A stretch of DNA of 64,000 nucleotides, taken from the IMG/VR virus record IMGVR_UViG_3300017971_000214, positions 62,261-126,260 of that record, one strand, 5' to 3'. This DNA comes from a virus. The notes under the pieces are model-generated. The model saw nothing but the letters and a program-made list of their open reading frames with translations, was not told the origin of the DNA and did no database searches. Numbering within the stretch: position 1 is the first letter of the stretch; the number at the start of each line of letters is the position of its first letter. The position numbers were made by a program, and so were the translations under genes. This document shows positions 3,043-54,128 of the stretch, in pieces.

Positions 3043-3076
3043 TGCGTCCATGTGGACGTATTGCGGAGGTGAGGTA

Positions 3077-4428: not shown

Positions 4429-4975
4429 GCACTACGTGCTGTTCATCAGTCCGGGGACGTTGTTCTCGGAGACCACTAGCAAGGCCATCGACTCGTGGGA
4501 CACCAAGAAGGCGGTGGAGCTGTCCAAGGGCATCGAGGAGCGCCACGGCGCCACGCCCTACGGCTTCCGGTTCGAGACCTACCTGAAGGGCGAACCCGTA
4601 CCGGATGGAGAGGGAGGAACACTGGAGGTGCGCCCCAAGCGCGTCGAGACTTCGGGCATTCACTTCTTGGGAGGGAGGATCGAATCCTACGGTGAAGTGG
4701 TGACTCGAAACGACCCCAAGGAGGACATCCTTCGCAGCAACATGCGAGGCGAGACGGCGTTCATCTGCATCAACACCAACAGCTACAAGAGCACGACGCC
4801 CTTCGGGGAGGACGACTGCGTGGTGGACGAAGAGGGCAACGTGGTTGAGCGCGGGAACGATCCCGAGCGCATGAAGTACCGCGAAGAGGTCAAGGCGGAA
4901 TGGGACCGCCAGCACGAAGAGGACATGAAGAGATGGAGAGCGAGGGAAGAATCCGCATCCGCAAACGAGACCTGA
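4409..4975 (+). CDS. hypothetical protein
   Basis: GAGGAG RBS; typical codon usage. Confidence 0.65.
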   Translation: MGKPQRKHYVLFISPGTLFSETTSKAIDSWDTKKAVELSKGIEERHGATPYGFRFETYLKGEPVPDGEGGTLEVRPKRVETSGIHFLGGRIESYGEVVTRNDPKEDILRSNMRGETAFICINTNSYKSTTPFGEDDCVVDEEGNVVERGNDPERMKYREEVKAEWDRQHEEDMKRWRAREESASANET

Positions 4976-7952: not shown

Positions 7953-8275
7953 ACTTCAGCGAGTACCAGAAGAAGGCCGGAACGACGGCGCTCTACCCCG
8001 ACCGAGGCAACCACATCGCCTACCCCGCGCTAGGGCTTGCCGGCGAAGCTGGCGAGGTCGCAGAGAAGGTGAAGAAGATCTTGCGAGGAGACCGCGAGTT
8101 GGACGACGAGTACCGCGCGGTGCTGCGCAAAGAACTCGGGGATGTCCTGTGGTACGTGGCGGCGATGTGCCACGAGATCGGAGCCGACATGCAGGACGTC
8201 GCCGAGGAGAACATCGCGAAGCTCGCCTCGCGGAAGGAGCGTGGGGTCATCCGCGGAAGTGGGGATGACCGATGA
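7949..8275 (+). CDS. mazG: MazG-like nucleoside triphosphate pyrophosphohydrolase
   Basis: LGLAGEAGEVAEKVKK, KELGDVLWYVA, GSGDDR. Confidence 0.9.
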   Translation: MNFSEYQKKAGTTALYPDRGNHIAYPALGLAGEAGEVAEKVKKILRGDRELDDEYRAVLRKELGDVLWYVAAMCHEIGADMQDVAEENIAKLASRKERGVIRGSGDDR

Positions 8276-8475
8276 AGGTCGAGCCCGGACCCGAGCTGAC
8301 GAGGGCGCAGGGGGACCTCGTGATGGAGCTGTTGTCCGATGCGCGTGACAGCGTGTACCGAGCGGCGCAGGAAATCGGATCGAAGGACCCGGCCCACGAC
8401 GTCCTGTGGAGCATGGCCGGGAGGATCGAACACGAGAAGGTCAAGCTGCTGCGGCGGTGCAAACAATGCTCTTGA
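8272..8475 (+). CDS. hypothetical protein
   Basis: ATGA overlap with the upstream stop. Confidence 0.5.
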   Translation: MKVEPGPELTRAQGDLVMELLSDARDSVYRAAQEIGSKDPAHDVLWSMAGRIEHEKVKLLRRCKQCS

Positions 8476-8505
8476 CCGATCTGAATGTAGGCGGTAGTCC
8501 TACAT
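8472..8505 (+). promoter_or_regulatory. putative sigma70-type promoter with overlapping palindromic operator
   Basis: TTGACC-N17-TAGTCC; inverted repeat ATGTAGG (8485-8491) / CCTACAT (8499-8505) straddles the -10. Confidence 0.4.
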
Positions 8506-8510
8506 GCCAG

Positions 8511-8672
8511 GCTGGACTAAGCCTCCAGCACAGTGGGTGGTCACTCCAGAAGCGAAGAAGAGTCCGGAAGGGGATCTTCACCGGTTTCTCCCCCCTGCCG
8601 GTGATGCCCGGCTTAGCTTTCGGGCTCTCCTTCGCCGCTGGAGTGCGTCTTGAAGCCGATGAGAGGAGCCCG
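8511..8672 (+). ncRNA. structured 5' leader (long hairpin plus pseudoknot) of the replication initiator gene
   Basis: nested helices CACTCCAG/CTGGAGTG, GCGAAG/CTTCGC, GAGTCCGGAAG/CTTTCGGGCTC, CACCGG/CCGGTG; loop CTAAGCC complementary to GGCTTAG. Confidence 0.6.
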
Positions 8673-8677
8673 TAGCC

Positions 8678-9952
8678 ATGCCCCGACCCAAGAAGCAGCC
8701 GGCCCGTGTGAACCCTTGGCGCCTCTTTGTGGGGGCCATGGTGCCCAACTGGCTGCTGCTGCGCCCCGAGCTGTCCCTCGGTGCCAAGCTCGTCTACGGG
8801 CGCCTCGCCCAGTACGCCGGGCGCCGGGGCTACGCCTACCCACTCATGAAGACCCTCGGGCGCGCGGTAGGGGTCAGCGAGAGGCAAGCGCGACGCTACG
8901 TCTCGGAGCTGAAGAACCACGGTCTCCTGGACACGGTCGACTACTCGGAGACCAACCGACCGAGCCGGTACTACTTCCTAAGCCACCACTGGATGTATGA
9001 AGAGGAAGTACACGAAACCACACTAGAAAGCGCGGGGGACCAGGACCAAGAAGAAAACGACCAGGAATTGCAGAGCGATTCCGAGGATTTGACACACCCC
9101 CCGGACACATATGACCGGACCCCCCGGACACATATGACCGGACCCCCCGGACAGATGTGTCCGCCAGAAGAGAGTCAGGGAAGAGAGTCAGAGAAAGAGA
9201 CTCAGGGTAGCGCCTTGCGGCGCCCCATCCCGGAAACGCCTCCTTCCGGCCCCCCGTCGAAACCGCAGGATACTGAATACGCCAGGCCACCTGATATGAA
9301 ACGCGATTGTCAAGTGGGGCGCTCAGTTCCGGTCCCCTCGGTGGCCGAGCTGGGTGCGGTCGTGAAGGCCGCTCAAGCGGAGGCCGACGACGCCGCGCGC
9401 ATCAAGGCGGCCAAGAAGAAGGCCGCGGCGGAGCGACGCCAGCGGTACAACGAGCAGCGCAAGGAGAACCGGAAGAACGAGCAGCGCGCGACCAACCTGC
9501 AGGGCAATGGGCTGAACGGGTCGAAGCTCACTCCTGAGCAGCGCAAGCGCCTGAAGAAGTGCGAGGGGCTGTGGCTATCCGGCATGCGGGCTCGTTGGCC
9601 CGACGCTACGTTTGCGGCGTGGAGCGGGAAGGAGCGCGGGCAGTGCACCAAGTTGCTGAAGCTCTACCCTGGTGACCTCGTAGGGCAAGCGCTATCCTAT
9701 GTGATAACCAACTGGGATGCGATCAAGGAGAGGCTGTTCAGAGGCAAAGGCTCCTTCCCCACGGTGGGGATGGTGCTCCGGCTGCACGACGTGCTGGTCC
9801 CCGAAGCCGAGACGCTAGGAAAGGCGCTGGCTGTTCGGGACGAATACAAGCAGTGGTTCAAAGACAACCCCAACAGCCTGTACCCACCGGATGACCTGGA
9901 GGCCAGGTACAACGCGGTCAAACCAGATCTCGAAGCGCTTGGATTGGAATAG
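8678..9952 (+). CDS. replication initiator protein with N-terminal winged HTH
   Basis: LSLGAKLVYGRL..YAYP.MKTLGRAVGVSERQARRYVSELKNHGLL (HTH_36-like); internal iterons; followed by DnaC-like and DnaB genes. Confidence 0.8.
   Translation: MPRPKKQPARVNPWRLFVGAMVPNWLLLRPELSLGAKLVYGRLAQYAGRRGYAYPLMKTLGRAVGVSERQARRYVSELKNHGLLDTVDYSETNRPSRYYFLSHHWMYEEEVHETTLESAGDQDQEENDQELQSDSEDLTHPPDTYDRTPRTHMTGPPGQMCPPEESQGRESEKETQGSALRRPIPETPPSGPPSKPQDTEYARPPDMKRDCQVGRSVPVPSVAELGAVVKAAQAEADDAARIKAAKKKAAAERRQRYNEQRKENRKNEQRATNLQGNGLNGSKLTPEQRKRLKKCEGLWLSGMRARWPDATFAAWSGKERGQCTKLLKLYPGDLVGQALSYVITNWDAIKERLFRGKGSFPTVGMVLRLHDVLVPEAETLGKALAVRDEYKQWFKDNPNSLYPPDDLEARYNAVKPDLEALGLE
9096..9164 (+). repeat. three tandem 23-bp iterons (putative origin)
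   Basis: ACCCCCCGGACACATATGACCGG x2 exact plus ACCCCCCGGACAGATGTGTCCGC; unit is not a multiple of 3. Confidence 0.85.
9168..9207 (+). repeat. three purine-rich 13-mers next to the iterons
   Basis: AAGAGAGTCAGGG, AAGAGAGTCAGAG, AAGAGACTCAGGG. Confidence 0.7.
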
Positions 9953-10585
9953 ATGAAGGATGGAGGGAGCAACGTGGAGCGGCTGCGCCGCACGCTAGGT
10001 CGATCGGACCTGGAGCGCATGAACATCCCGAAGAAGTTCTGGGGTGCGAAGGTGCAGTATGCCCCCGAGAGCGTGCGCGACGTCGTGCGCCGCTACCTGC
10101 TCAACATCGACAATATGGTGGCCCGCGGGGCCGGCATGTACGTCGTCGGGAAGCCCGGCGTGGGCAAGACCTCTATCGCCGTTATGGTCTGCAAGGAAGC
10201 GCGTTCCTGCGGCTTCACGGCCTACTTCACCCCCATCTGGGAGTTGAGGGAGTGCATCAAGTCCAGAGTCATGTTCGAAGAGAACACGTCGGTTCTGGAC
10301 CGCTGCAAGGAAGTCGATGTTCTGGTGCTCGATGATCTCTGCGCCGATGACGTCAAAGACTACACGTTCGGCGCTCGTCGCATCGAGGAGCTGCTGTCGT
10401 ACCGGAGTTCTCAGAAGCTCGTCACTGCGGTTACGACGCGATTGGATGCGTCGGAGCTGAAGAGCAAATTCGCATCCTTGATTTCATCGACACGTGGGTG
10501 CATGGTGTTCCTCCCCGTCGAAGGCCCAGACCTGAGACGGAAGCAGGACGAAGAGTTGAATAGAGCGGTGTTCGGTTCGGACTAG
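9953..10585 (+). CDS. DnaC/IstB-like AAA+ helicase loader
   Basis: GKPGVGKT Walker A, VLVLDDL Walker B, GPDLR; lies between initiator and DnaB. Confidence 0.85.
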   Translation: MKDGGSNVERLRRTLGRSDLERMNIPKKFWGAKVQYAPESVRDVVRRYLLNIDNMVARGAGMYVVGKPGVGKTSIAVMVCKEARSCGFTAYFTPIWELRECIKSRVMFEENTSVLDRCKEVDVLVLDDLCADDVKDYTFGARRIEELLSYRSSQKLVTAVTTRLDASELKSKFASLISSTRGCMVFLPVEGPDLRRKQDEELNRAVFGSD

Positions 10586-10619: not shown

Positions 10620-13196
10620 GTGGGCGTTGATCTCGACAAAGGACTGGTTGCATCCATACTCCGCGATGGCCCCGACGCTTTGAAGGTCGTGAGGGAGTTC
10701 GGGATTGACGGCAGCCTTTTGGTAGATCCGGGGCGCAAGTTGTTCGACTTCGTCGAGCACTACTTTCGGCAGTATGGCCAGCTCCCCACGCCCGAGCTGC
10801 TGGTATCGAAGTTCGAGAAGGGCTCTCTTCCCGACGTGAAGGATCCAATTGAGTACTTCATCTTGGAGATCCGCGGCAGGAAACTGCAGAACGATCTGAA
10901 GGGCCGCGTCTACCCGTTCATGAAGATGCTCGAAGACGGGCAGAAACCCTTCGAGGCTCTAGACGAACTGGACATTCTGATCCGTGGTCTGCGTCAGGCT
11001 CACGAGATCACACGGGCTCAAGCCGAGAGCGTGCCGAAGCTGTGGCCTGAGGTGATGGATCTCTACGACCGGGTGAAGGGCGGGGAGAAGGGCATTCTCA
11101 CCCCGTGGCCTACGGTGAACAACGAGACGCTAGGCTTCTGGCCTGAAGACCTCGCGCTGTTCGCGGCCCGGCTCGGCATAGGCAAGTGCGTAGCCGAGGA
11201 TACGGAGATCGTAGACCCAGAGACAGGTGTTCCGCATACCATCCACGAGGTGTGTGAGAGAGAAGATCTCAGGAAGGTGTTCACTTGGAGCAAGGAGCGG
11301 GGGGTTCACGCTGCGCGGATAACGGCCAAGGTAGACACGGGAGTAAAACCCTGTCTGCGGTTCCGCTTTGCGTCTGGTCGCGAGGTCACTGTGACGCCGG
11401 AGCACCCTTTTCTGACCTCAGCTGGTTGGGAACCAGCGGCGGACTTGGTTGTGGGGGCTTCTGTGGGCCTTCCGGCTCGGGTGCCGTTCCCCGAGAGCCC
11501 CGAGCAGCTGCTTCCAGAGGCGGTTGATCTCCTCGCACTCCTGTTGGCGGAAGGGAGCTATAGCGGGAAGCACGTTGGGGTCTCTAGCGATGATGACGTA
11601 TTGTTGTCGATCGCTAGTCGAGCGTCTGACGCTTTCGGAGTAGATCTGAAGTACCGCTCGGGAGTCGACTACGATTTCGTCCGGCGGGAGAAGTCAGGCC
11701 CCAACCATGTGAGGACGTTTCTACGCTCTCACGATATGGACGGGAAGAAGGCCGTAGACAAGATTATCCCAGAAGCCGTGTTTGGTCTCCCTTCCGATCA
11801 GCTAGCTCGGTTCCTCGGGCTGTTCTGGATGTGTGACGGGTACGTAGATGGCACCGGTCCTGGCGTGACGCTTGCCTCCGAGAAGATGGTTCAGCAGCTC
11901 CAACATCTTCTCCTCCGTTTTGGGATTCATAGTAGTGTTGATCCAAAGAAGGCTACGTGTGAGGGGCGTGTATTCAACGCGTGGCGTCTCAGGGTGTACG
12001 CTTCCTCTTGGCCTGTGTTCTTGGCCGCTATTCCGCTGTGGGGTAGCAAGCGAGAGCGGTTGGAGGAGTTGGAGAGCCTGGACCGAAATCCTAACATCGG
12101 CTTCCCCAGGGTTTCAGGGGAGTTCAAGGCGCATCTTTTGGGATTGGTACGGAAGAGAGAAAACCATGGGAAGCTGAAACAGGTTGGCGAGCGCCTTGGC
12201 TGGTCCAGCTATTTCATGTTCCGCAGCCTGTTCGGGAAGGGCGACACTTTGTTGCTTCGGCGCTTCGCGGTGTTCTGCGAAGTATTTGGGCTGGAAAGGG
12301 AGTTCGGTTGGTTGTGGGACAGTGAGATTTTCTGGGACTCTGTGGAGTCTATCGAGGACGTCGGCCCTACCAAGATCTATGACCTCACTGTCGAGCCTTC
12401 TGCGTGTTTCTTGGCCAATGACGTGATCGTTCACAACACGTGGGCGGCGGCCATCATCGCTCATCACGCGTGGGCCGTGGGCGGCCACAAGGTGCTGTTC
12501 GGAACGACGGAGATCTCCAAGATTCGCATCGCCATGCGCTTCGCGGCGATCCACTTCAAACTCCCCTACCGTGAGATTCGCCTCGGGAAGCTCGACGCCT
12601 TCAACGAGAAGAAGATGCGCGATGGCATCAAAGACATCATGGATGCCGAGGGGCTGTACGTCATCGGCGGGGACTTCGACTTCCGCGTGGAGTCCTACGA
12701 GAACGCCGTCGAAGAGGTGGCGCCCGAGCTGTCGATCTTGGACGGAGCCTATTTGCTCAAGACGCAGGGGCAAACCAGGACCGAGCGCGCTGCCAACGCC
12801 TTCGACGAGCTGAAGCGAATTTGCAAGCGCACGAAGTGCCCGAGCATCGTCACCATGCAGTTCAACCGCGAGGTGAAGGCAGGCTCCAAGGCCACGGCAG
12901 ACGCCGGCAACATCGCGCTGACCGACGTCGCTGGCTGGAACGCCGATCTCGCCTACGGACTGATCCAGTCCGAGGACATGAAGAAGGACCGCCGTATGAT
13001 CTTCAAGCCCTTGAAGGTCCGTGAAGGCGAGGGCGAGGAGTTCGAGGTCAATTGGGACATCGACAAGGTGAACTTCACCGAGCTGCCGAAGCTGGGTGGC
13101 GGCGGGGGTGGAGCCGATGATGATGACGATCCGTTCGGTGCTGGAGTGAACGGCACGGGCGCCAGCTCGGGCGGTTCGGACGAGGTGCCTTTCTAG
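10620..13196 (+). CDS. dnaB: replicative DnaB-like helicase containing an intein (about 441 aa after splicing)
   Basis: AARLGIGK|TW split Walker A, TTEIS, ILDGAYL, MQFNR, KVREG. Confidence 0.9.
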   Translation: MGVDLDKGLVASILRDGPDALKVVREFGIDGSLLVDPGRKLFDFVEHYFRQYGQLPTPELLVSKFEKGSLPDVKDPIEYFILEIRGRKLQNDLKGRVYPFMKMLEDGQKPFEALDELDILIRGLRQAHEITRAQAESVPKLWPEVMDLYDRVKGGEKGILTPWPTVNNETLGFWPEDLALFAARLGIGKCVAEDTEIVDPETGVPHTIHEVCEREDLRKVFTWSKERGVHAARITAKVDTGVKPCLRFRFASGREVTVTPEHPFLTSAGWEPAADLVVGASVGLPARVPFPESPEQLLPEAVDLLALLLAEGSYSGKHVGVSSDDDVLLSIASRASDAFGVDLKYRSGVDYDFVRREKSGPNHVRTFLRSHDMDGKKAVDKIIPEAVFGLPSDQLARFLGLFWMCDGYVDGTGPGVTLASEKMVQQLQHLLLRFGIHSSVDPKKATCEGRVFNAWRLRVYASSWPVFLAAIPLWGSKRERLEELESLDRNPNIGFPRVSGEFKAHLLGLVRKRENHGKLKQVGERLGWSSYFMFRSLFGKGDTLLLRRFAVFCEVFGLEREFGWLWDSEIFWDSVESIEDVGPTKIYDLTVEPSACFLANDVIVHNTWAAAIIAHHAWAVGGHKVLFGTTEISKIRIAMRFAAIHFKLPYREIRLGKLDAFNEKKMRDGIKDIMDAEGLYVIGGDFDFRVESYENAVEEVAPELSILDGAYLLKTQGQTRTERAANAFDELKRICKRTKCPSIVTMQFNREVKAGSKATADAGNIALTDVAGWNADLAYGLIQSEDMKKDRRMIFKPLKVREGEGEEFEVNWDIDKVNFTELPKLGGGGGGADDDDDPFGAGVNGTGASSGGSDEVPF
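11187..12437 (+). mobile_element. DnaB intein, 417 aa, LAGLIDADG homing endonuclease
   Basis: starts CVAEDTEI, block B VTPEHPF, LLLAEGS and LFWMCDGY, ends VIVHN before T. Confidence 0.92.
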
Positions 13197-23683: not shown

Positions 23684-23985
23684 ATGTCGTCGCGATCTCA
23701 GGAAATGTATCAGCCAAGATCGAGTTTGCGAGGACCGGAGGGGGAACCCCCGTCTGCACGTTCCAGATGGCTTCCGACCGCCACACCCGCGACACGGTCA
23801 TTACCGCCTGGGTGAAAGTCAACGCTTACGGGGCGGGGCTCGTTGAGGCTTGCCGCCAGAGGCTCGCCAAGGGAAGATACGTGGTGGTGGAAGGCGAGCT
23901 GATGAACCGGGACGGTAGGATGGGCGAGTTGCTAGAAGTCCGGGCTCGGCGGATCGACTTCCCGAACAACAACAACGAGAGTTGA
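23680..23985 (+). CDS. short bacterial-type SSB/PriB-like OB-fold protein without acidic tail
   Basis: MNVVAISGNV, WVKVNAYG, LAKGRYVVVEGEL, EVRARRIDF. Confidence 0.8.
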   Translation: MNVVAISGNVSAKIEFARTGGGTPVCTFQMASDRHTRDTVITAWVKVNAYGAGLVEACRQRLAKGRYVVVEGELMNRDGRMGELLEVRARRIDFPNNNNES

Positions 23986-50793: not shown

Positions 50794-52293
50794 ATGGGCA
50801 CCGAAGCTCGACAGATCCTCAACGAAGACGCGCGGCGAACCGTGGCCGACAAGAGCTACGTCGGCGCGCTGGTACGGAAGTGGCGGGAGTTCCTGGAGGG
50901 ACTTCCGGAGCGCACCGAGCAAGACCGCTACACGCTCGGCGTCACGGCCGTTCTCATGGAGAACGAGTCGCAGTACCTGCAGAACCTCAACGAAGAGACG
51001 CGGACGGTCAACGTCGGCAGCTTCACGAAGTTCATCTTTCCGGTTCTGCGCCGCGTTTTCCCGAACCTGATCGCCAACGAGATCGTCTCGGTTCAGCCGA
51101 TGACGGCTCCGGTCGGTGCGGTCTTCTTCCTGGACTACGTCTACGGCACCACCAAGGGTGCGACGACGGCCGGCAACCTCTTCCCCCGCGATTTCGATCG
51201 CGACTACTCCTCGGAGTACATCAACGGGGAGGCGCTGGTCACCGGCGACGCCACCAACTACGGTGGTGGTGGAACCGCTCTGACGGCGACCCTGGCGTTC
51301 ACGCCGGTTCGTCCGCTGGATGCCTCTCGGGGCTACAGCGTGGTCGTCAGCGAGATCAACGCGACCACGGGCGCGGTCGTTCAGACGGCGACCGATGACG
51401 GCGCGGGTGGCTTCACCGGTGCGGTCTCGGCCGGAACGATCAACTACTCGAACGGCGCCATCACCGGCTTCCTGTTCACCAACCCGCCCGCCACGGGCAA
51501 TCAGGTCAAGGCGTACTACTACTACGACGGCGAGCTGAACACCCAGGTTCCGCAGATCAACCTGGATGTCAAGAAGGCTCCCGTCGAGGCAGTGCCGCGG
51601 CGTCTGAAGGCTCTGTGGTCCGCCGAGGCCGCGGAAGACCTCCGCGCTTTCCACGGCGTCGATGCCGAGACCGAGATGGTCTCCGCCATCGCGCAGGAGA
51701 TCGCACTGGAGATCGACCGCGAGATCATCCAGCAGCTGTTCGCGTCCTCCACAGGCACGACCGGCACGTTCGACCGGGTTCCCCCGGCCGGCATCAACGA
51801 GCTGGATCACCTGCGGGCGCTGATCACCACGATCAGCACCGTGTCCAACCTCATCCACAAGAAGACGCTGCGCGCGCCGGCCAACTGGATCGTCACCTCC
51901 CCCGAGGTCTCGGCCCTGCTGACCCAGCTCACCACGCACGGCGACTTCCGACCGCTGTGGGTCTCGGGCGGCGAGAGCCCCTACGGCCCGGTGGACGCAC
52001 CGCGTCCGCTCACGCAGCACGGGCAGTTCTCGATCTACAAGGTCGGGACGCTCATGAACAAGTGGCTCGTGTACGAGGATCCATTCTTCACCTCTGACCA
52101 GATGCTCATCGGCCTGAAGGGCGCGAGCTACCTGGACAGCGGTTTCGTGTGGGCTCCCTACATCCCGCTGCAGGTCACCCCGACCTTCCTCGATCCGAAC
52201 GACTTCTCGTTCCGCAAGGGTCTCCGCACGCGCTACGCGTCGAAGATGCTGCGCAGCGAGTTCTACGGATCCGTCAGGATTCAGAACCTCTGA
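50794..52293 (+). CDS. major capsid protein, T4 gp23-like
   Basis: VQPMTAPVG, RRLKALWS.EAAEDLRAFHGVDAE, EIDREII, WAPYIPL, GLRTRY. Confidence 0.95.
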   Translation: MGTEARQILNEDARRTVADKSYVGALVRKWREFLEGLPERTEQDRYTLGVTAVLMENESQYLQNLNEETRTVNVGSFTKFIFPVLRRVFPNLIANEIVSVQPMTAPVGAVFFLDYVYGTTKGATTAGNLFPRDFDRDYSSEYINGEALVTGDATNYGGGGTALTATLAFTPVRPLDASRGYSVVVSEINATTGAVVQTATDDGAGGFTGAVSAGTINYSNGAITGFLFTNPPATGNQVKAYYYYDGELNTQVPQINLDVKKAPVEAVPRRLKALWSAEAAEDLRAFHGVDAETEMVSAIAQEIALEIDREIIQQLFASSTGTTGTFDRVPPAGINELDHLRALITTISTVSNLIHKKTLRAPANWIVTSPEVSALLTQLTTHGDFRPLWVSGGESPYGPVDAPRPLTQHGQFSIYKVGTLMNKWLVYEDPFFTSDQMLIGLKGASYLDSGFVWAPYIPLQVTPTFLDPNDFSFRKGLRTRYASKMLRSEFYGSVRIQNL

Positions 52294-52315
52294 GTCCCCT
52301 TCCTCGTTCTCGCCG

Positions 52316-52360
52316 CAAGGCCCCTCATCCCCGCTGCGGGGTGGGGGGCTTTGTGTTATT
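52316..52360 (+). terminator. intrinsic terminator after the capsid gene
   Basis: CAAGGCCCCTCATCCCCGC / GCGGGGTGGGGGGCTTTG followed by TGTTATT. Confidence 0.7.
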
Positions 52361-52402
52361 CATGCATACGTCCATGTGGACGTATGAATGGACGGAGGGA
52401 CC

Positions 52403-52789
52403 ATGAAAGGCGCAGCGCTGCAGATCGAAAGCGAGCTGGCTAGTTTGGGAATGGACGACGAGGAGCCGCCGGTGGAGCCGGATATTCCGCCCGAGGCCGC
52501 GGACGAGCCTGTAGGGGTAGACGACCCCGCAGACGAGCCGGACGACACCGACCGCGAGCACGCCGCCAAGACGGCTCAGGCCCTAGCGCGAGCTGTCGAT
52601 CAGATGGCCGCGTCGTTCGAACAGGTGCGGCAGGCCGCCCACGCGCTCTGTGAGGCGCTGGAGCCTCGGCCGAACGCCCTGGTGGAAGAGGATGCCGATG
52701 CGGGGGAGGACCCCGAGGTCTCGGTCACAGTGGACGGTGGTGAGCAAGAGAAGGACGGTGAGGAAGATGATGGCGAGGAAGCGGTTTAG
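52403..52789 (+). CDS. hypothetical acidic protein
   Basis: GGAGGG RBS. Confidence 0.6.
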   Translation: MKGAALQIESELASLGMDDEEPPVEPDIPPEAADEPVGVDDPADEPDDTDREHAAKTAQALARAVDQMAASFEQVRQAAHALCEALEPRPNALVEEDADAGEDPEVSVTVDGGEQEKDGEEDDGEEAV

Positions 52790-53381: not shown

Positions 53382-54128
53382 ATGACGGCGGAGAATCCAG
53401 CGTTCAAGTCCCAGACCAAGGACAAAGAGGCTCTTGGGAAGTGGATTCTCCGTCGCCTTGGCGCGCCCATCTGGAAGGTCGAGCTGACACAGGAGCACAT
53501 CGACGACGCCATTGAGGACGCGAAGAGATGGTTCGCCGAGAAGAAGGGGCTACTCAAGCTCGGCTCCCTCGATGTGGTGAGTGGGCAGCCTTGCTACCCG
53601 CTTCCCGACGAAGTGGACTTCATCATCGACGTGGCCTTCGAGCAGTCGCCTTCGGACATGGGAAGTATCTTCTCTCCCTTTCTGCTGATGGAGGAAGAGA
53701 TCCCCTACGATGTGTTTGCGGCTCCGCAGAGCCTCGGTCTCTACTCGACCTACGTTCAGTCCCTATCGTACATCGAGATGGCGCAGCGTATCACCGGGTC
53801 GGAGATGGAGTGGTGGCAGCAGAACCGTCATCTCTACGTTGCCCCCACCCCGGCGAACAGCAAGAAGATCATCTACGTGTACAAGACCTCCGTGTTTGCT
53901 ATCGACCAGCTGTCGGAGCGCGACCACAACTTCATCAAGAAGTACGCGCTGGCGTGCGCCAAGCGGGACCTCGGTCGCATCCGTTCCAAGTACGATGGGT
54001 TTCAGGGGGCGCAGGGGCAGCAGTCGATGGATGGATCTGTGCTTCTAGACGAGGCACGAGACGCCATCGAGAAGTTGGATGAAGAGATCATCCTCGCTGG
54101 CTATCCAATGCTTTTTCTCACTGGCTGA
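53382..54128 (+). CDS. neck/head-completion protein, T4 gp13-like
   Basis: WILRRLGAPIWKVELTQEHIDDAIEDA, KKYALA.AK..LGRIRSKY. Confidence 0.85.
   Translation: MTAENPAFKSQTKDKEALGKWILRRLGAPIWKVELTQEHIDDAIEDAKRWFAEKKGLLKLGSLDVVSGQPCYPLPDEVDFIIDVAFEQSPSDMGSIFSPFLLMEEEIPYDVFAAPQSLGLYSTYVQSLSYIEMAQRITGSEMEWWQQNRHLYVAPTPANSKKIIYVYKTSVFAIDQLSERDHNFIKKYALACAKRDLGRIRSKYDGFQGAQGQQSMDGSVLLDEARDAIEKLDEEIILAGYPMLFLTG

Follow-up and report, generated by a model that had tools for sequence, protein, structure and literature searches.

What is the role of the 202 bases (8476-8677) that separate a small gene from the presumed replication initiator gene, rep, in this uncultured high-GC phage? A preliminary description of the window, that is, the whole stretch of 64,000 nucleotides analyzed here, had read this gap (hereafter the leader) as a pseudoknotted two-state RNA switch of the IncI/IncB plasmid type. 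All motifs that it listed could be read directly from the sequence at the positions it gave. The landmarks of the locus are the following:

8272..8475, + strand: upstream small gene, an ORF of 67 aa with a CxxC-like end (RRCKQCS), whose TGA stop marks the start of the leader
8472..8477, + strand: TTGACC, the -35 hexamer implied by the preliminary description, overlapping the stop codon of the small gene
8504..8653, + strand: leader ORF of 49 codons, running through hairpins H2 and H3 (see below), in frame with rep and ending 25 nt before its ATG
8663..8680, + strand: translation start of rep, with the Shine-Dalgarno sequence GAGGAG at 8663-68 and the ATG at 8678
8678..9952, + strand: rep, a replication-initiator-like gene of 424 aa (HTH_36, 1.5e-9; phrog_270 'replication initiation protein', 4.3e-14)
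9096..9207, + strand: three 23-bp iterons and three 13-bp purine-rich repeats, inside rep

Judging from its domain matches, the gene 3' of the leader is plausibly a replication initiator. It has 2924 relatives at E<=1e-3, and its start is backed by the N-terminus MPRPK, which is common to the homologue P0002 (54% identical). Contexts of the GAGGAGCCCG type have further occurrences at genome positions 705, 34980 and 46389. DnaC-like and DnaB genes come after rep, the neighboring genes are all on the + strand, and neither tRNA nor tmRNA was found in the window. The small gene has the composition typical of genes here (GC3 0.84, GC2 0.41) and a homologue in the relative G001 (50% identity, E 7e-21); searches of Pfam and PHROG returned no match for it. 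The same relative carries an equivalent iteron array (L002 3742-3851). The array of iterons and 13-mers inside rep is more likely to be the origin than the leader is, and the leader therefore need not be the origin.

We predicted the folding of the leader with RNAfold, considering both the minimum free energy (MFE) structure and the pair probabilities. The predicted elements are:

8485..8505, + strand: H1, palindrome and hairpin ATGTAGG-CGGTAGT-CCTACAT (pair probabilities 0.95-0.99)
8511..8529, + strand: H2, 6-bp hairpin with the 7-nt loop CUAAGCC at 8517-8523 (stem pair probability 0.84-0.91)
8542..8645, + strand: H3, interrupted hairpin of 104 nt with helices of 8, 6, 12, 3 and 8 bp (-60.9 kcal/mol)
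8610..8616, + strand: GGCUUAG in the internal loop of H3, the perfect complement of the H2 loop and its candidate kissing partner
8646..8661, + strand: H4, weak hairpin of 4 bp that separates H3 from the ribosome site (pair probability 0.55-0.57)

Pair probabilities in H1-H3 range from 0.84 to 1.00, and one fold dominates the ensemble. H1 is a perfect 7-N7-7 palindrome, and its 3' arm contains the AT of the ATG that opens the leader ORF; it has one exact copy in the window, which rules it out as a repeated operator. The stem arms of H2 are GCTGGA (8511-16) and TCCAGC (8524-29), and its loop opens with CUAA, a match to the YUNR U-turn motif as defined in PMC4485353. H3 coincides with an inverted repeat (I1) with 29-nt arms that are 83% complementary, and carries an asymmetric internal loop as well as an 11-nt C-rich apical loop (8586-8596). 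The long interrupted hairpin of the preliminary description is present, with helices other than the 8, 6, 11 and 6 bp claimed for it. That the gap is almost fully paired was an overstatement, since approximately 126 of the 202 bases (62%) are paired in the MFE structure.

This fold is real and statistically unusual, beyond what chance produces. A stretch of 215 nt spanning the leader is more stable than its shuffled versions (z -3.11, matched by 1 of 200 shuffles), and the signal is stronger for H3 alone, folded as RNA of the + strand (z -4.73, none of 200 shuffles as good). Among 8410 GC-adjusted 110-nt windows of the 126-kb record, H3 ranks second in stability. The suggestion that the leader belongs to no described RNA family was borne out by Rfam 15, which gave no match to the leader and 0 matches at the gathering score in the whole window. 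The top models for the leader were eukaryotic miRNAs (21.4 bits, compared to a gathering score of 60; E 0.072), as the leader contains a generic long hairpin.

The loop of H2 and the segment GGCUUAG in H3 are both predicted to be free on the + strand (unpaired p 0.92-0.99 and 0.93-1.00, respectively), and the duplex between them has an energy of -9.0 kcal/mol. No perfect match of 7 nt joining a hairpin loop to another unpaired stretch occurred among 400 dinucleotide shuffles, which reached a maximum of 5, or among 400 random genomic windows, which reached 6; the exact complementarity noticed earlier is thus improbable by chance. On the - strand, three of the seven bases of the 8610-16 segment are paired (unpaired p 0.00-0.01), and both 7-mer partners are free on the + strand only. 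The H2 loop and the H3 internal loop could form a tertiary kissing contact that would compact the leader. By our own estimate, rather than by computation, the 12-nt linker would be nearly extended across approximately 29 stacked layers of H3. We detected no third pairing site at the start codon of rep, where the best duplexes are unremarkable (-5 to -10 kcal/mol).

The other half of the proposed switch was not supported. One strand of H3, CGGGCTC (8621-27), was thought to pair alternatively with GAGCCCG (8666-72), which overlaps the GAGGAG ribosome site. Forcing this pairing costs 8.6-9.6 kcal/mol and its equilibrium probability is 8.6e-7. The ribosome site of rep is instead largely open (unpaired p 0.17-0.98 over 8661-8680), with 2+2 weak pairs there in the MFE structure. 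Given these modeled energies, we do not think that the leader acts as a thermodynamic two-state anti-RBS switch.

Our preferred reading, which we hold tentatively and with somewhat less than even confidence, is that the leader is a folded RNA module, specific to this lineage, that acts in cis and influences the synthesis of Rep. We favor it because both the fold and the kissing complementarity are beyond chance, because the 7-mer partners are free only on the strand on which all neighboring genes lie, because an open ribosome site follows a single dominant fold present in a single copy, and because the changes listed for a variant contig (see below) are few and never destabilizing (three of three with ddG <= 0). 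A module of approximately 180-200 nt would be carried on the sense transcript between the small gene and rep, probably where the relative G001 has an 18-nt junction. It would uncouple the translation of rep from that of the upstream gene, placing a rigid and recognizable RNA domain 15-190 nt ahead of the open ribosome site, and would act as a post-transcriptional dosing element for Rep. The two most likely mechanisms would be an RNase III-type processing or stability site, and an operator recognized by a protein, as in T4 gene 32. Counting against the RNA module are its absence from G001, the equally good folding of H3 on both strands and as DNA, the failure to detect a promoter or a convincing terminator, the changes in the variant contig, which suit a coding ORF no less well, the nearly extended 12-nt linker that the contact would require, and the result that the record, which is 68% complete, yielded no phage-encoded RNase III and no ProQ/FinO protein. 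A bolder version of this reading, which we consider rather unlikely, is that the kissing contact is itself the regulated step that sets Rep dosage and thus replication timing, and that the leader represents, at high GC, an independent case of a wider design in which phages control initiator synthesis through a kissing-loop leader RNA. The contact would then be opened or closed by ribosomes on the 49-codon ORF, by an RNA or protein acting in trans, or by pairing between RNAs; pairing of a hairpin loop with an internal loop between RNA molecules occurs in the pRNA rings of phi29.

G001, the only syntenic relative that we obtained, has both flanking genes with 18 nt between them and no leader. 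No homologous leader was found by blastn of 8272-9100 against phages, in viral contigs searched with Rep, P0002 and the DnaC-like protein or with exact leader patterns, or in metagenome contigs searched with A1 and P0002. Genome contigs gave nothing in one search and, in another, 10 loci that have only the N-terminal domain in common; tblastn of Rep and the DnaC-like protein against phages gave distant matches only. A search with the alignment A3 retrieved eight loci, of which only L002 is full-length, and A5 led to the same contig again. The covariance model R1 matched its own source alone (both strands, G000), and nothing in G001 or in 19 loci. In a narrow search of the open-access literature, we found no leader of this kind in a comparable phage.

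A leader confined to one lineage could also be an insertion that is functionless or selfish, namely what is left of a small hairpin element, mobile or derived from recombination, that is tolerated between two genes. This explanation survives best among the alternatives, and we give it a small but real chance. It would account for the short junction in G001 and for a gapped direct repeat, TGC(G)TCTTGA(AG)CCGAT, that flanks H1-H3 (8466-8480 and 8643-8660). The repeat is marginal, as 59 of 1000 shuffles score as high, and for this reason we rejected a target-site duplication flanking the leader. Unlike repeated hairpin elements, the leader has a single copy in the 126-kb record and no copy elsewhere in G001. 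The improbable loop complementarity moreover suggests selection, and the leader is kept with few changes in a variant contig (X3) that is approximately 97% identical and comes from another habitat. Sediment, seawater and wetland samples contain the phage. Two further origins were tried and rejected. As for a repeated element, the 12-mers of the leader recur elsewhere only at a chance-like level, the expectation being our own estimate. As for a duplicate of the 3' end of the small gene, the alignment score lies below the shuffle mean and is equaled or exceeded by 497 of 500 shuffles.

A second alternative, which we judge quite unlikely, places the function in the DNA: the leader would be an operator or auxiliary origin bound by the initiator or another protein, or would form a cruciform or single-strand hairpin during replication. 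H3, as a 29-nt inverted repeat, folds equally well on the - strand (z -4.92) and as DNA (z -4.07), with none of 200 shuffles as good in each case, which leaves room for a role at the DNA level, and the perfect palindrome of H1 fits with it. In addition, the rep iteron and the apex of H3 (8589-8611) agree at 15 of 23 positions; when random genomic windows were scored against the iteron, 20 of 1492 did as well. In iteron plasmids, rep is commonly autoregulated by way of inverted repeats that resemble iterons and lie close to the rep promoter. However, the resemblance of the H3 apex to the iteron is weak and was noticed post hoc, G001 keeps the array of iterons and 13-mers inside rep but not the leader, and a site in duplex DNA leaves unexplained why the 7-nt complementarity is free on the + strand only.

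The leader could instead harbor a small protein gene of the ordinary kind (49 aa, 8504-8653), the hairpins being incidental to it, an explanation that we consider improbable. Its support comes from the variant contig X3, which has a depth of 2.8 and shows three listed changes in 171 leader positions, compared to four in 124 coding positions. The three changes in the leader (8509, 8512 and 8587) all fall at third codon positions and are synonymous in the 8504-8653 frame, a property that only 20% of the 513 substitutions possible in 8476-8646 have. The upstream small gene shows the same coding pattern, with three of four changes at third positions in our own reading of the frame. The three leader changes are also structure-neutral (all with ddG <= 0, compared to 37% of the 513 possible substitutions with ddG <= 0.3), and the C>T at 8512 turns a G-C into a G-U pair in the H2 stem. 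A coding ORF thus explains the X3 changes no less well than the structure does. This variant support consists of one contig with three further differences unlisted, and reads from the sequencing run X4 did not cover the leader.

Other features of the ORF speak against a gene. Its composition looks non-coding, with GC3 of 0.54 and GC2 of 0.60, compared to 0.74-0.84 and 0.38-0.46 in six genes, and a GC3 as low as this is found in only 3.1% of 162 49-codon chunks of real genes. Among 5.8 billion proteins, none has three 5-residue words in common with its product, which means that gene callers never called this ORF, not even in its own contigs. The ORF is missing from G001, and BLASTP of its peptide against the small-gene peptide gave nothing, so the upstream small protein shows no similarity to it. 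Read-through from the leader ORF into rep can be dismissed, as two TGA codons (8651-53 and 8660-62) part them and both would have to be decoded, while the other genes end on TGA or stay intact when it is read as a stop.

The reading originally proposed for the leader, a switch of the IncI/IncB type, is equally doubtful. In it, a pseudoknot would activate rep, an antisense RNA or the 8621-27/8666-72 pairing would block it, and the ORF might encode a coupled leader peptide. The pseudoknot-capable pairing is real, the H2 loop starts with a YUNR-type CUAA, and a ribosome on the ORF would unzip H3 and finish beside the ribosome site of rep. According to excerpts of PMC8053102 and PMC8383071, the antisense RNA of I-complex plasmids blocks both the leader peptide's translation and the required pseudoknot. 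Against this reading, in addition to the negligible anti-RBS state, the unsequestered ribosome site and the missing third pairing site at the start codon, the ribosome site of the ORF is a weak AGGCGG buried in H1, in front of a frame of non-coding composition. The signals of transcription that it calls for were not detected either. Between 7800 and 9300, we found 0 promoter-like sites (sigma-70-like) on either strand, a count to be read with the proviso that the promoter type of the host may differ, and the hexamers 16-19 nt after TTGACC do not fit TANNNT; the idea that the palindrome covers a -10 element is accordingly unsupported. The same scan detected neither an antisense promoter nor, within the leader, a terminator-like site on the - strand. 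On the + strand, the sole terminator candidate, a stem of 5 bp (8597-8612) whose T tail is weak, was rejected (2 sites compared to 1.3 expected). What endures of the preliminary description is a folded, pseudoknot-capable element of no Rfam family in front of a plausible initiator gene; the switch, the sequestration of the RBS and the details borrowed from IncI/IncB plasmids are not supported.

The leader is an orphan element from one sparsely sampled lineage, and the argument for its function is drawn entirely from position and folding statistics. How the structure of a leader RNA controls initiator dosage has been worked out well in a few plasmid groups and in T4 gene 32; for the initiators of large phages from the environment, little of the kind is known. 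Should the RNA module be real, it would combine a compact fold of exceptional statistics and a defined tertiary contact of 7 nt, and G001 would provide a natural 'minus-leader' control, making a clean system in which to study how leaders set replication timing.

Among known systems, the I-complex plasmids (for example ColIb-P9 repY-repZ, IncB pMU720 repB-repA, and IncL/M) share with this locus a structured leader that abuts the initiator gene, a hairpin loop that can pair with a distant single-stranded stretch, and a short upstream ORF that ends near the start of rep. In these plasmids, as described in PMC8053102 and PMC8383071, the distal partner abuts the ribosome site of rep, this site is kept sequestered as long as the leader peptide has not been translated, and the loop is also the target of a competing, constitutive antisense RNA. 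Here, in contrast, the partner lies in a helix-flanked loop inside a long hairpin, 47 nt upstream of the Shine-Dalgarno sequence, and there is no relation in sequence.

The operator of T4 gene 32 is similar in that a tertiary RNA fold lies approximately 60-70 nt before the start of a replication protein and is present in a lineage-dependent manner. According to excerpts of PMC3014915, it is located 67 nt upstream of the start codon, is missing in the related phage RB49, and consists of an H-type pseudoknot followed by an unstructured A+U-rich tract that reaches the ribosome site. Its absence from RB49 indicates that loss or gain in single lineages is compatible with function. In T4, a large virulent phage, a compact pseudoknot is bound cooperatively by a ssDNA-binding protein; in the leader, a hairpin loop would meet the internal loop of a G+C-rich hairpin of 104 nt, ahead of a gene for an HTH initiator. 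A tract of the T4 type is absent, as the stretch from the contact to the ribosome site is G+C-rich and paired (3' strand of H3, and H4).

The third comparison is with the R sites of phage T7. According to PMC3867540, the idealized RNase III substrate has 22 bp, such sites are common in T7 transcripts, and phage RNase III hairpins uncouple adjacent cistrons and govern the stability or translation of the mRNA. In its lower part, H3 contains 8+6+12 = 26 bp over 29 layers, interrupted by one 2x2 loop and one 1x1 mismatch, and thus reaches the approximately 22 bp or more of quasi-continuous duplex; by duplex length, H3 is a candidate RNase III-type site. Typical RNase III sites of T7 are shorter than H3, and the N leader of lambda provides another RNase III processing hairpin. 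The contact between H2 and H3 has no counterpart in the T7 R sites, with which the leader shares a long, imperfect intercistronic hairpin with internal loops and at least two helical turns.

The window covers bases 62261-126260 of a 126,260-bp IMG/VR virus record with an estimated completeness of 68% (CheckV), and its GC content is 61.7%. A gap of 202 nt, hereafter the leader, is flanked by a small gene and by the replication-initiator-like gene rep. All genes around the leader lie on the plus strand, with MazG-like and ThyX-like genes upstream of rep and genes of the replication machinery downstream.

Features of the leader and its neighbourhood (window coordinates; hairpins H1-H4 from RNAfold)
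8272-8475, plus strand: small upstream gene, 67 aa
8485-8505, plus strand: H1, the palindrome
8504-8653, plus strand: leader ORF with ATG start, 49 codons, in frame with rep
8511-8529, plus strand: H2, with loop CUAAGCC
8542-8645, plus strand: H3, helices of 8, 6, 12, 3 and 8 bp, with GGCUUAG within an asymmetric internal loop
8646-8661, plus strand: H4, a weak hairpin
8678-9952, plus strand: rep, 424 aa; HTH_36 (1.5e-9) and the phage replication-initiator family phrog_270 (4.3e-14)
9096-9164 and 9167-9207, within rep: three 23-bp iterons and three 13-bp purine-rich AGAGTCA repeats
9953-10585, plus strand: DnaC-like loader gene, downstream of rep
10620-13196, plus strand: long DnaB ORF, 858 aa, downstream of the DnaC-like gene

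A Rep homologue (P0002, 54% identity) that begins identically, with MPRPK...VNPWRLFVGAMVPNW, backs the rep start at 8678. The translation of the DnaB-like ORF contains an intein-like insert; the usual helicase is about half as long.

Direct reading of the sequence recovered every motif of the preliminary description where it had been placed. The region 8476-8690 folds at -92.5 kcal/mol (z -3.11, matched by 1 of 200 shuffles; RNAfold), and the pair probabilities of H1-H3 are 0.84-1.00. The stability of H3 is exceptional: by itself it reaches z -4.73, none of 200 shuffles is as good, and it ranks second among 8410 GC-adjusted 110-nt windows of the entire record. To call the gap almost fully paired was an overstatement, as approximately 62% of it is paired (count from the minimum free energy, MFE, structure), and the scan returned 0 promoter-like sites where the palindrome had been thought to cover a -10 element. 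The H2 loop CUAAGCC (8517-8523) and its complement GGCUUAG (8610-8616) are each unpaired at p >= 0.92. When we searched for hairpin loops of up to 12 nt with a perfect complement in any other MFE-unpaired stretch, the longest complement was 5 nt among 400 dinucleotide shuffles and 6 nt among 400 random 225-nt genomic windows; none in either set attained the 7 nt of the leader. The core observation of a fold with complementary loops therefore holds and exceeds chance. The CUAA of the H2 loop fits the YUNR U-turn motif, a feature of fast-pairing recognition loops (PMC4485353); since chance alone often produces such a tetranucleotide, the match is a hint only.

A second exact CTAAGCC occurs inside rep (8978-8988), as part of the 11-mer CTAAGCCACCA, which differs from the H2 loop region at 1 position. 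It could likewise pair with GGCUUAG at 8610-16, and it sits in codons of the conserved FLSHHW motif, of which it is probably a by-product. A gapped direct repeat flanking the H1-H3 block is marginal (59 of 1000 shuffles reach its score). Other stretches that rank high in stability, among them 52271-52431 of the window and 53556-53716 of the whole record, are intergenic G+C-rich hairpins of terminator type, for instance GGCCCC...GGGGCC with a T-rich tail behind it. Conventional intrinsic terminators seem to serve the phage at such sites, and H3 seems unlike them.

H3 is an inverted repeat and could also act as DNA. Minus-strand RNA (z -4.92) and DNA (z -4.07) fold as well as the plus-strand RNA does, so folding energy decides neither between RNA and DNA nor between strands. 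The kissing bases differ between the strands: all 14 are free on the plus strand, while on the minus strand a helix takes up 3 of the 7 target bases (unpaired p 0.00-0.01). This asymmetry favours a sense RNA. The H3 apex (8589-8611) shares 15 of 23 positions with the rep iteron, a weak hint of a putative initiator-binding site; the comparison was post hoc and 20 of 1492 random genomic windows reach the same value. The iterons and 13-bp repeats inside rep are kept in the syntenic related phage contig G001, with different iteron letters (locus L002, 3742-3797 and 3812-3851), in what looks like a lambda-like origin that lies within rep and that the two phages have in common. The origin is likely there, and the leader is no conserved part of it.

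The leader could also be read as coding. Two TGA and two sense codons (8651-8662) separate the end of its 49-codon ORF from the Shine-Dalgarno region, and across the rest of the window TGA behaves as a stop. The ORF has GC3 of 0.54 and GC2 of 0.60, compared to 0.74-0.84 and 0.38-0.46 in the genes here; when genes are cut into 49-codon chunks, a GC3 as low is found in just 3.1% of 162. No predicted protein among 5.8 billion shares words with the peptide. Of four sequencing runs examined, two, from sediment and seawater, gave contigs identical to the window across 8272-8773, and run X4 had no coverage of the leader. A wetland run (X3) returned a 307-nt contig of depth 2.8 that covers 8352-8646 with 10 differences. 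Among the 7 differences listed, 4 are in the small gene (3 at third codon positions and 1 Val/Ile, frames read by eye) and 3 in the leader, which is retained in this one variant (8509 A>T, 8512 C>T, 8587 T>C). All three leader changes are synonymous third positions in the ORF, in whose frame 20% of possible substitutions are synonymous, albeit in one low-depth contig. In the same single contig of depth 2.8 they are structure-neutral or better (ddG -0.4, -2.0 and 0.0, respectively): the change at 8512 replaces a G-C pair in H2 by G-U, and 8587 falls within the apical loop of H3. Of the 513 possible leader substitutions, just 37% have ddG <= 0.3.

The leader had further been proposed to switch between two states, with CGGGCUC (8621-27) pairing to GAGCCCG (8666-72) over the ribosome site. 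Forcing this pairing gives -83.5 compared to -93.1 kcal/mol; in the ensemble it costs 8.6 kcal/mol and has a probability of 8.6e-7. One fold dominates, and in it the ribosome site is open, with the rep Shine-Dalgarno and AUG largely accessible (unpaired 0.17-0.98). These values lend no support to the switch at equilibrium, which would require a trans factor or ribosome traffic. Moreover, GAGGAGCCCG-like ribosome-site contexts recur at further genome positions, so the GAGCCCG half of the pairing is not specific to the leader. The start codon offers no third pairing site. A repeat family was rejected, as the leader is present in a single copy in the record.

No Rfam family matches the leader, for which the top matches are eukaryotic miRNA hairpin models far below gathering scores, and the whole window has zero matches at gathering score. 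The Rep family is large (2924 proteins at E<=1e-3) and the lineage is very thinly sampled; the sole syntenic relative compared was G001, a 168-kb IMG/VR contig (loci L002 and L020). Identity amounts to 62% for the DnaC-like protein, 37% for Rep and 50% (E 7e-21) for the small upstream protein. There, 18 nt holding just a ribosome site separate the small-gene stop from the rep ATG. BLAST of the leader found no match in G001, and R1, a covariance model built on H2 and H3, matched neither G001 nor 19 loci around more distant rep homologues. The leader is thus lineage-specific, through gain in this lineage or loss in G001. The G001 rep homologue is divided between two frames that overlap, 114 aa and 395 aa long (L002, 2992-3336 and 3333-4520); a frameshift, misassembly or a genuine split could account for this.

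A conserved palindrome, (A)TGCGTCCAT(G/A)TGGACG(T/C)AT, is not found in the leader. Pattern search located 4 copies in this record, each with GGAGG a few bases downstream and then a start codon:

3044-3061 and 52368-52385 of the window, plus strand: palindrome copies
4465-4482 and 23774-23791 of the whole record (G000), plus strand: palindrome copies

It has approximately 7 distinct sites in G001 (for example, loci L024, L026, L028 and L030), and the reversed pattern gave 0 matches. The palindrome probably serves as a promoter, operator or translational operator throughout the lineage.

Our preferred reading, held tentatively, is that the leader belongs to the rep mRNA and acts there in cis as a folded RNA module. 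We infer that the H2 loop and its partner in H3 do kiss and that the module controls how much Rep is made; such a contact would be geometrically tight, as a 12-nt linker would have to stretch along approximately 29 stacked layers of H3 (our own estimate). Two mechanisms seem to fit best. An RNase III-type enzyme could recognise the lower stem of H3, which has 26 bp compared to 22 bp in the idealised substrate; phage polycistronic mRNAs often carry sites of this kind (PMC3867540). Alternatively, a protein could recognise the folded leader, as with the T4 gene 32 operator, a pseudoknot 67 nt upstream of the start that the related phage RB49 lacks (PMC3014915). Neither RNase III nor a ProQ/FinO protein is encoded in the record (68% complete), so such mechanisms would need host factors.

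The preliminary description was right about a strongly structured leader in front of rep that has no Rfam match; the two-state switch and the defining details of the analogy to I-complex plasmids were not supported. In those plasmids an antisense RNA blocks translation of a leader peptide and also formation of a pseudoknot, immediately upstream of the rep ribosome site, that rep translation needs (PMC8053102, PMC8383071). The phage leader differs in two defining features, as its distal partner is positioned differently and the rep ribosome site is not sequestered. Consensus scans found no antisense promoter or terminator, with a consensus that may not be the promoter type of the host, and the composition of the ORF at 8504-8653 is unlike that of genes here, yet all three listed variant changes in it are synonymous. 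The element is not a member of the I-complex system, though in its mode of action it may resemble I-complex leaders to some degree; it is a strongly structured, lineage-specific orphan leader whose tertiary contact is credible and whose function is putative.
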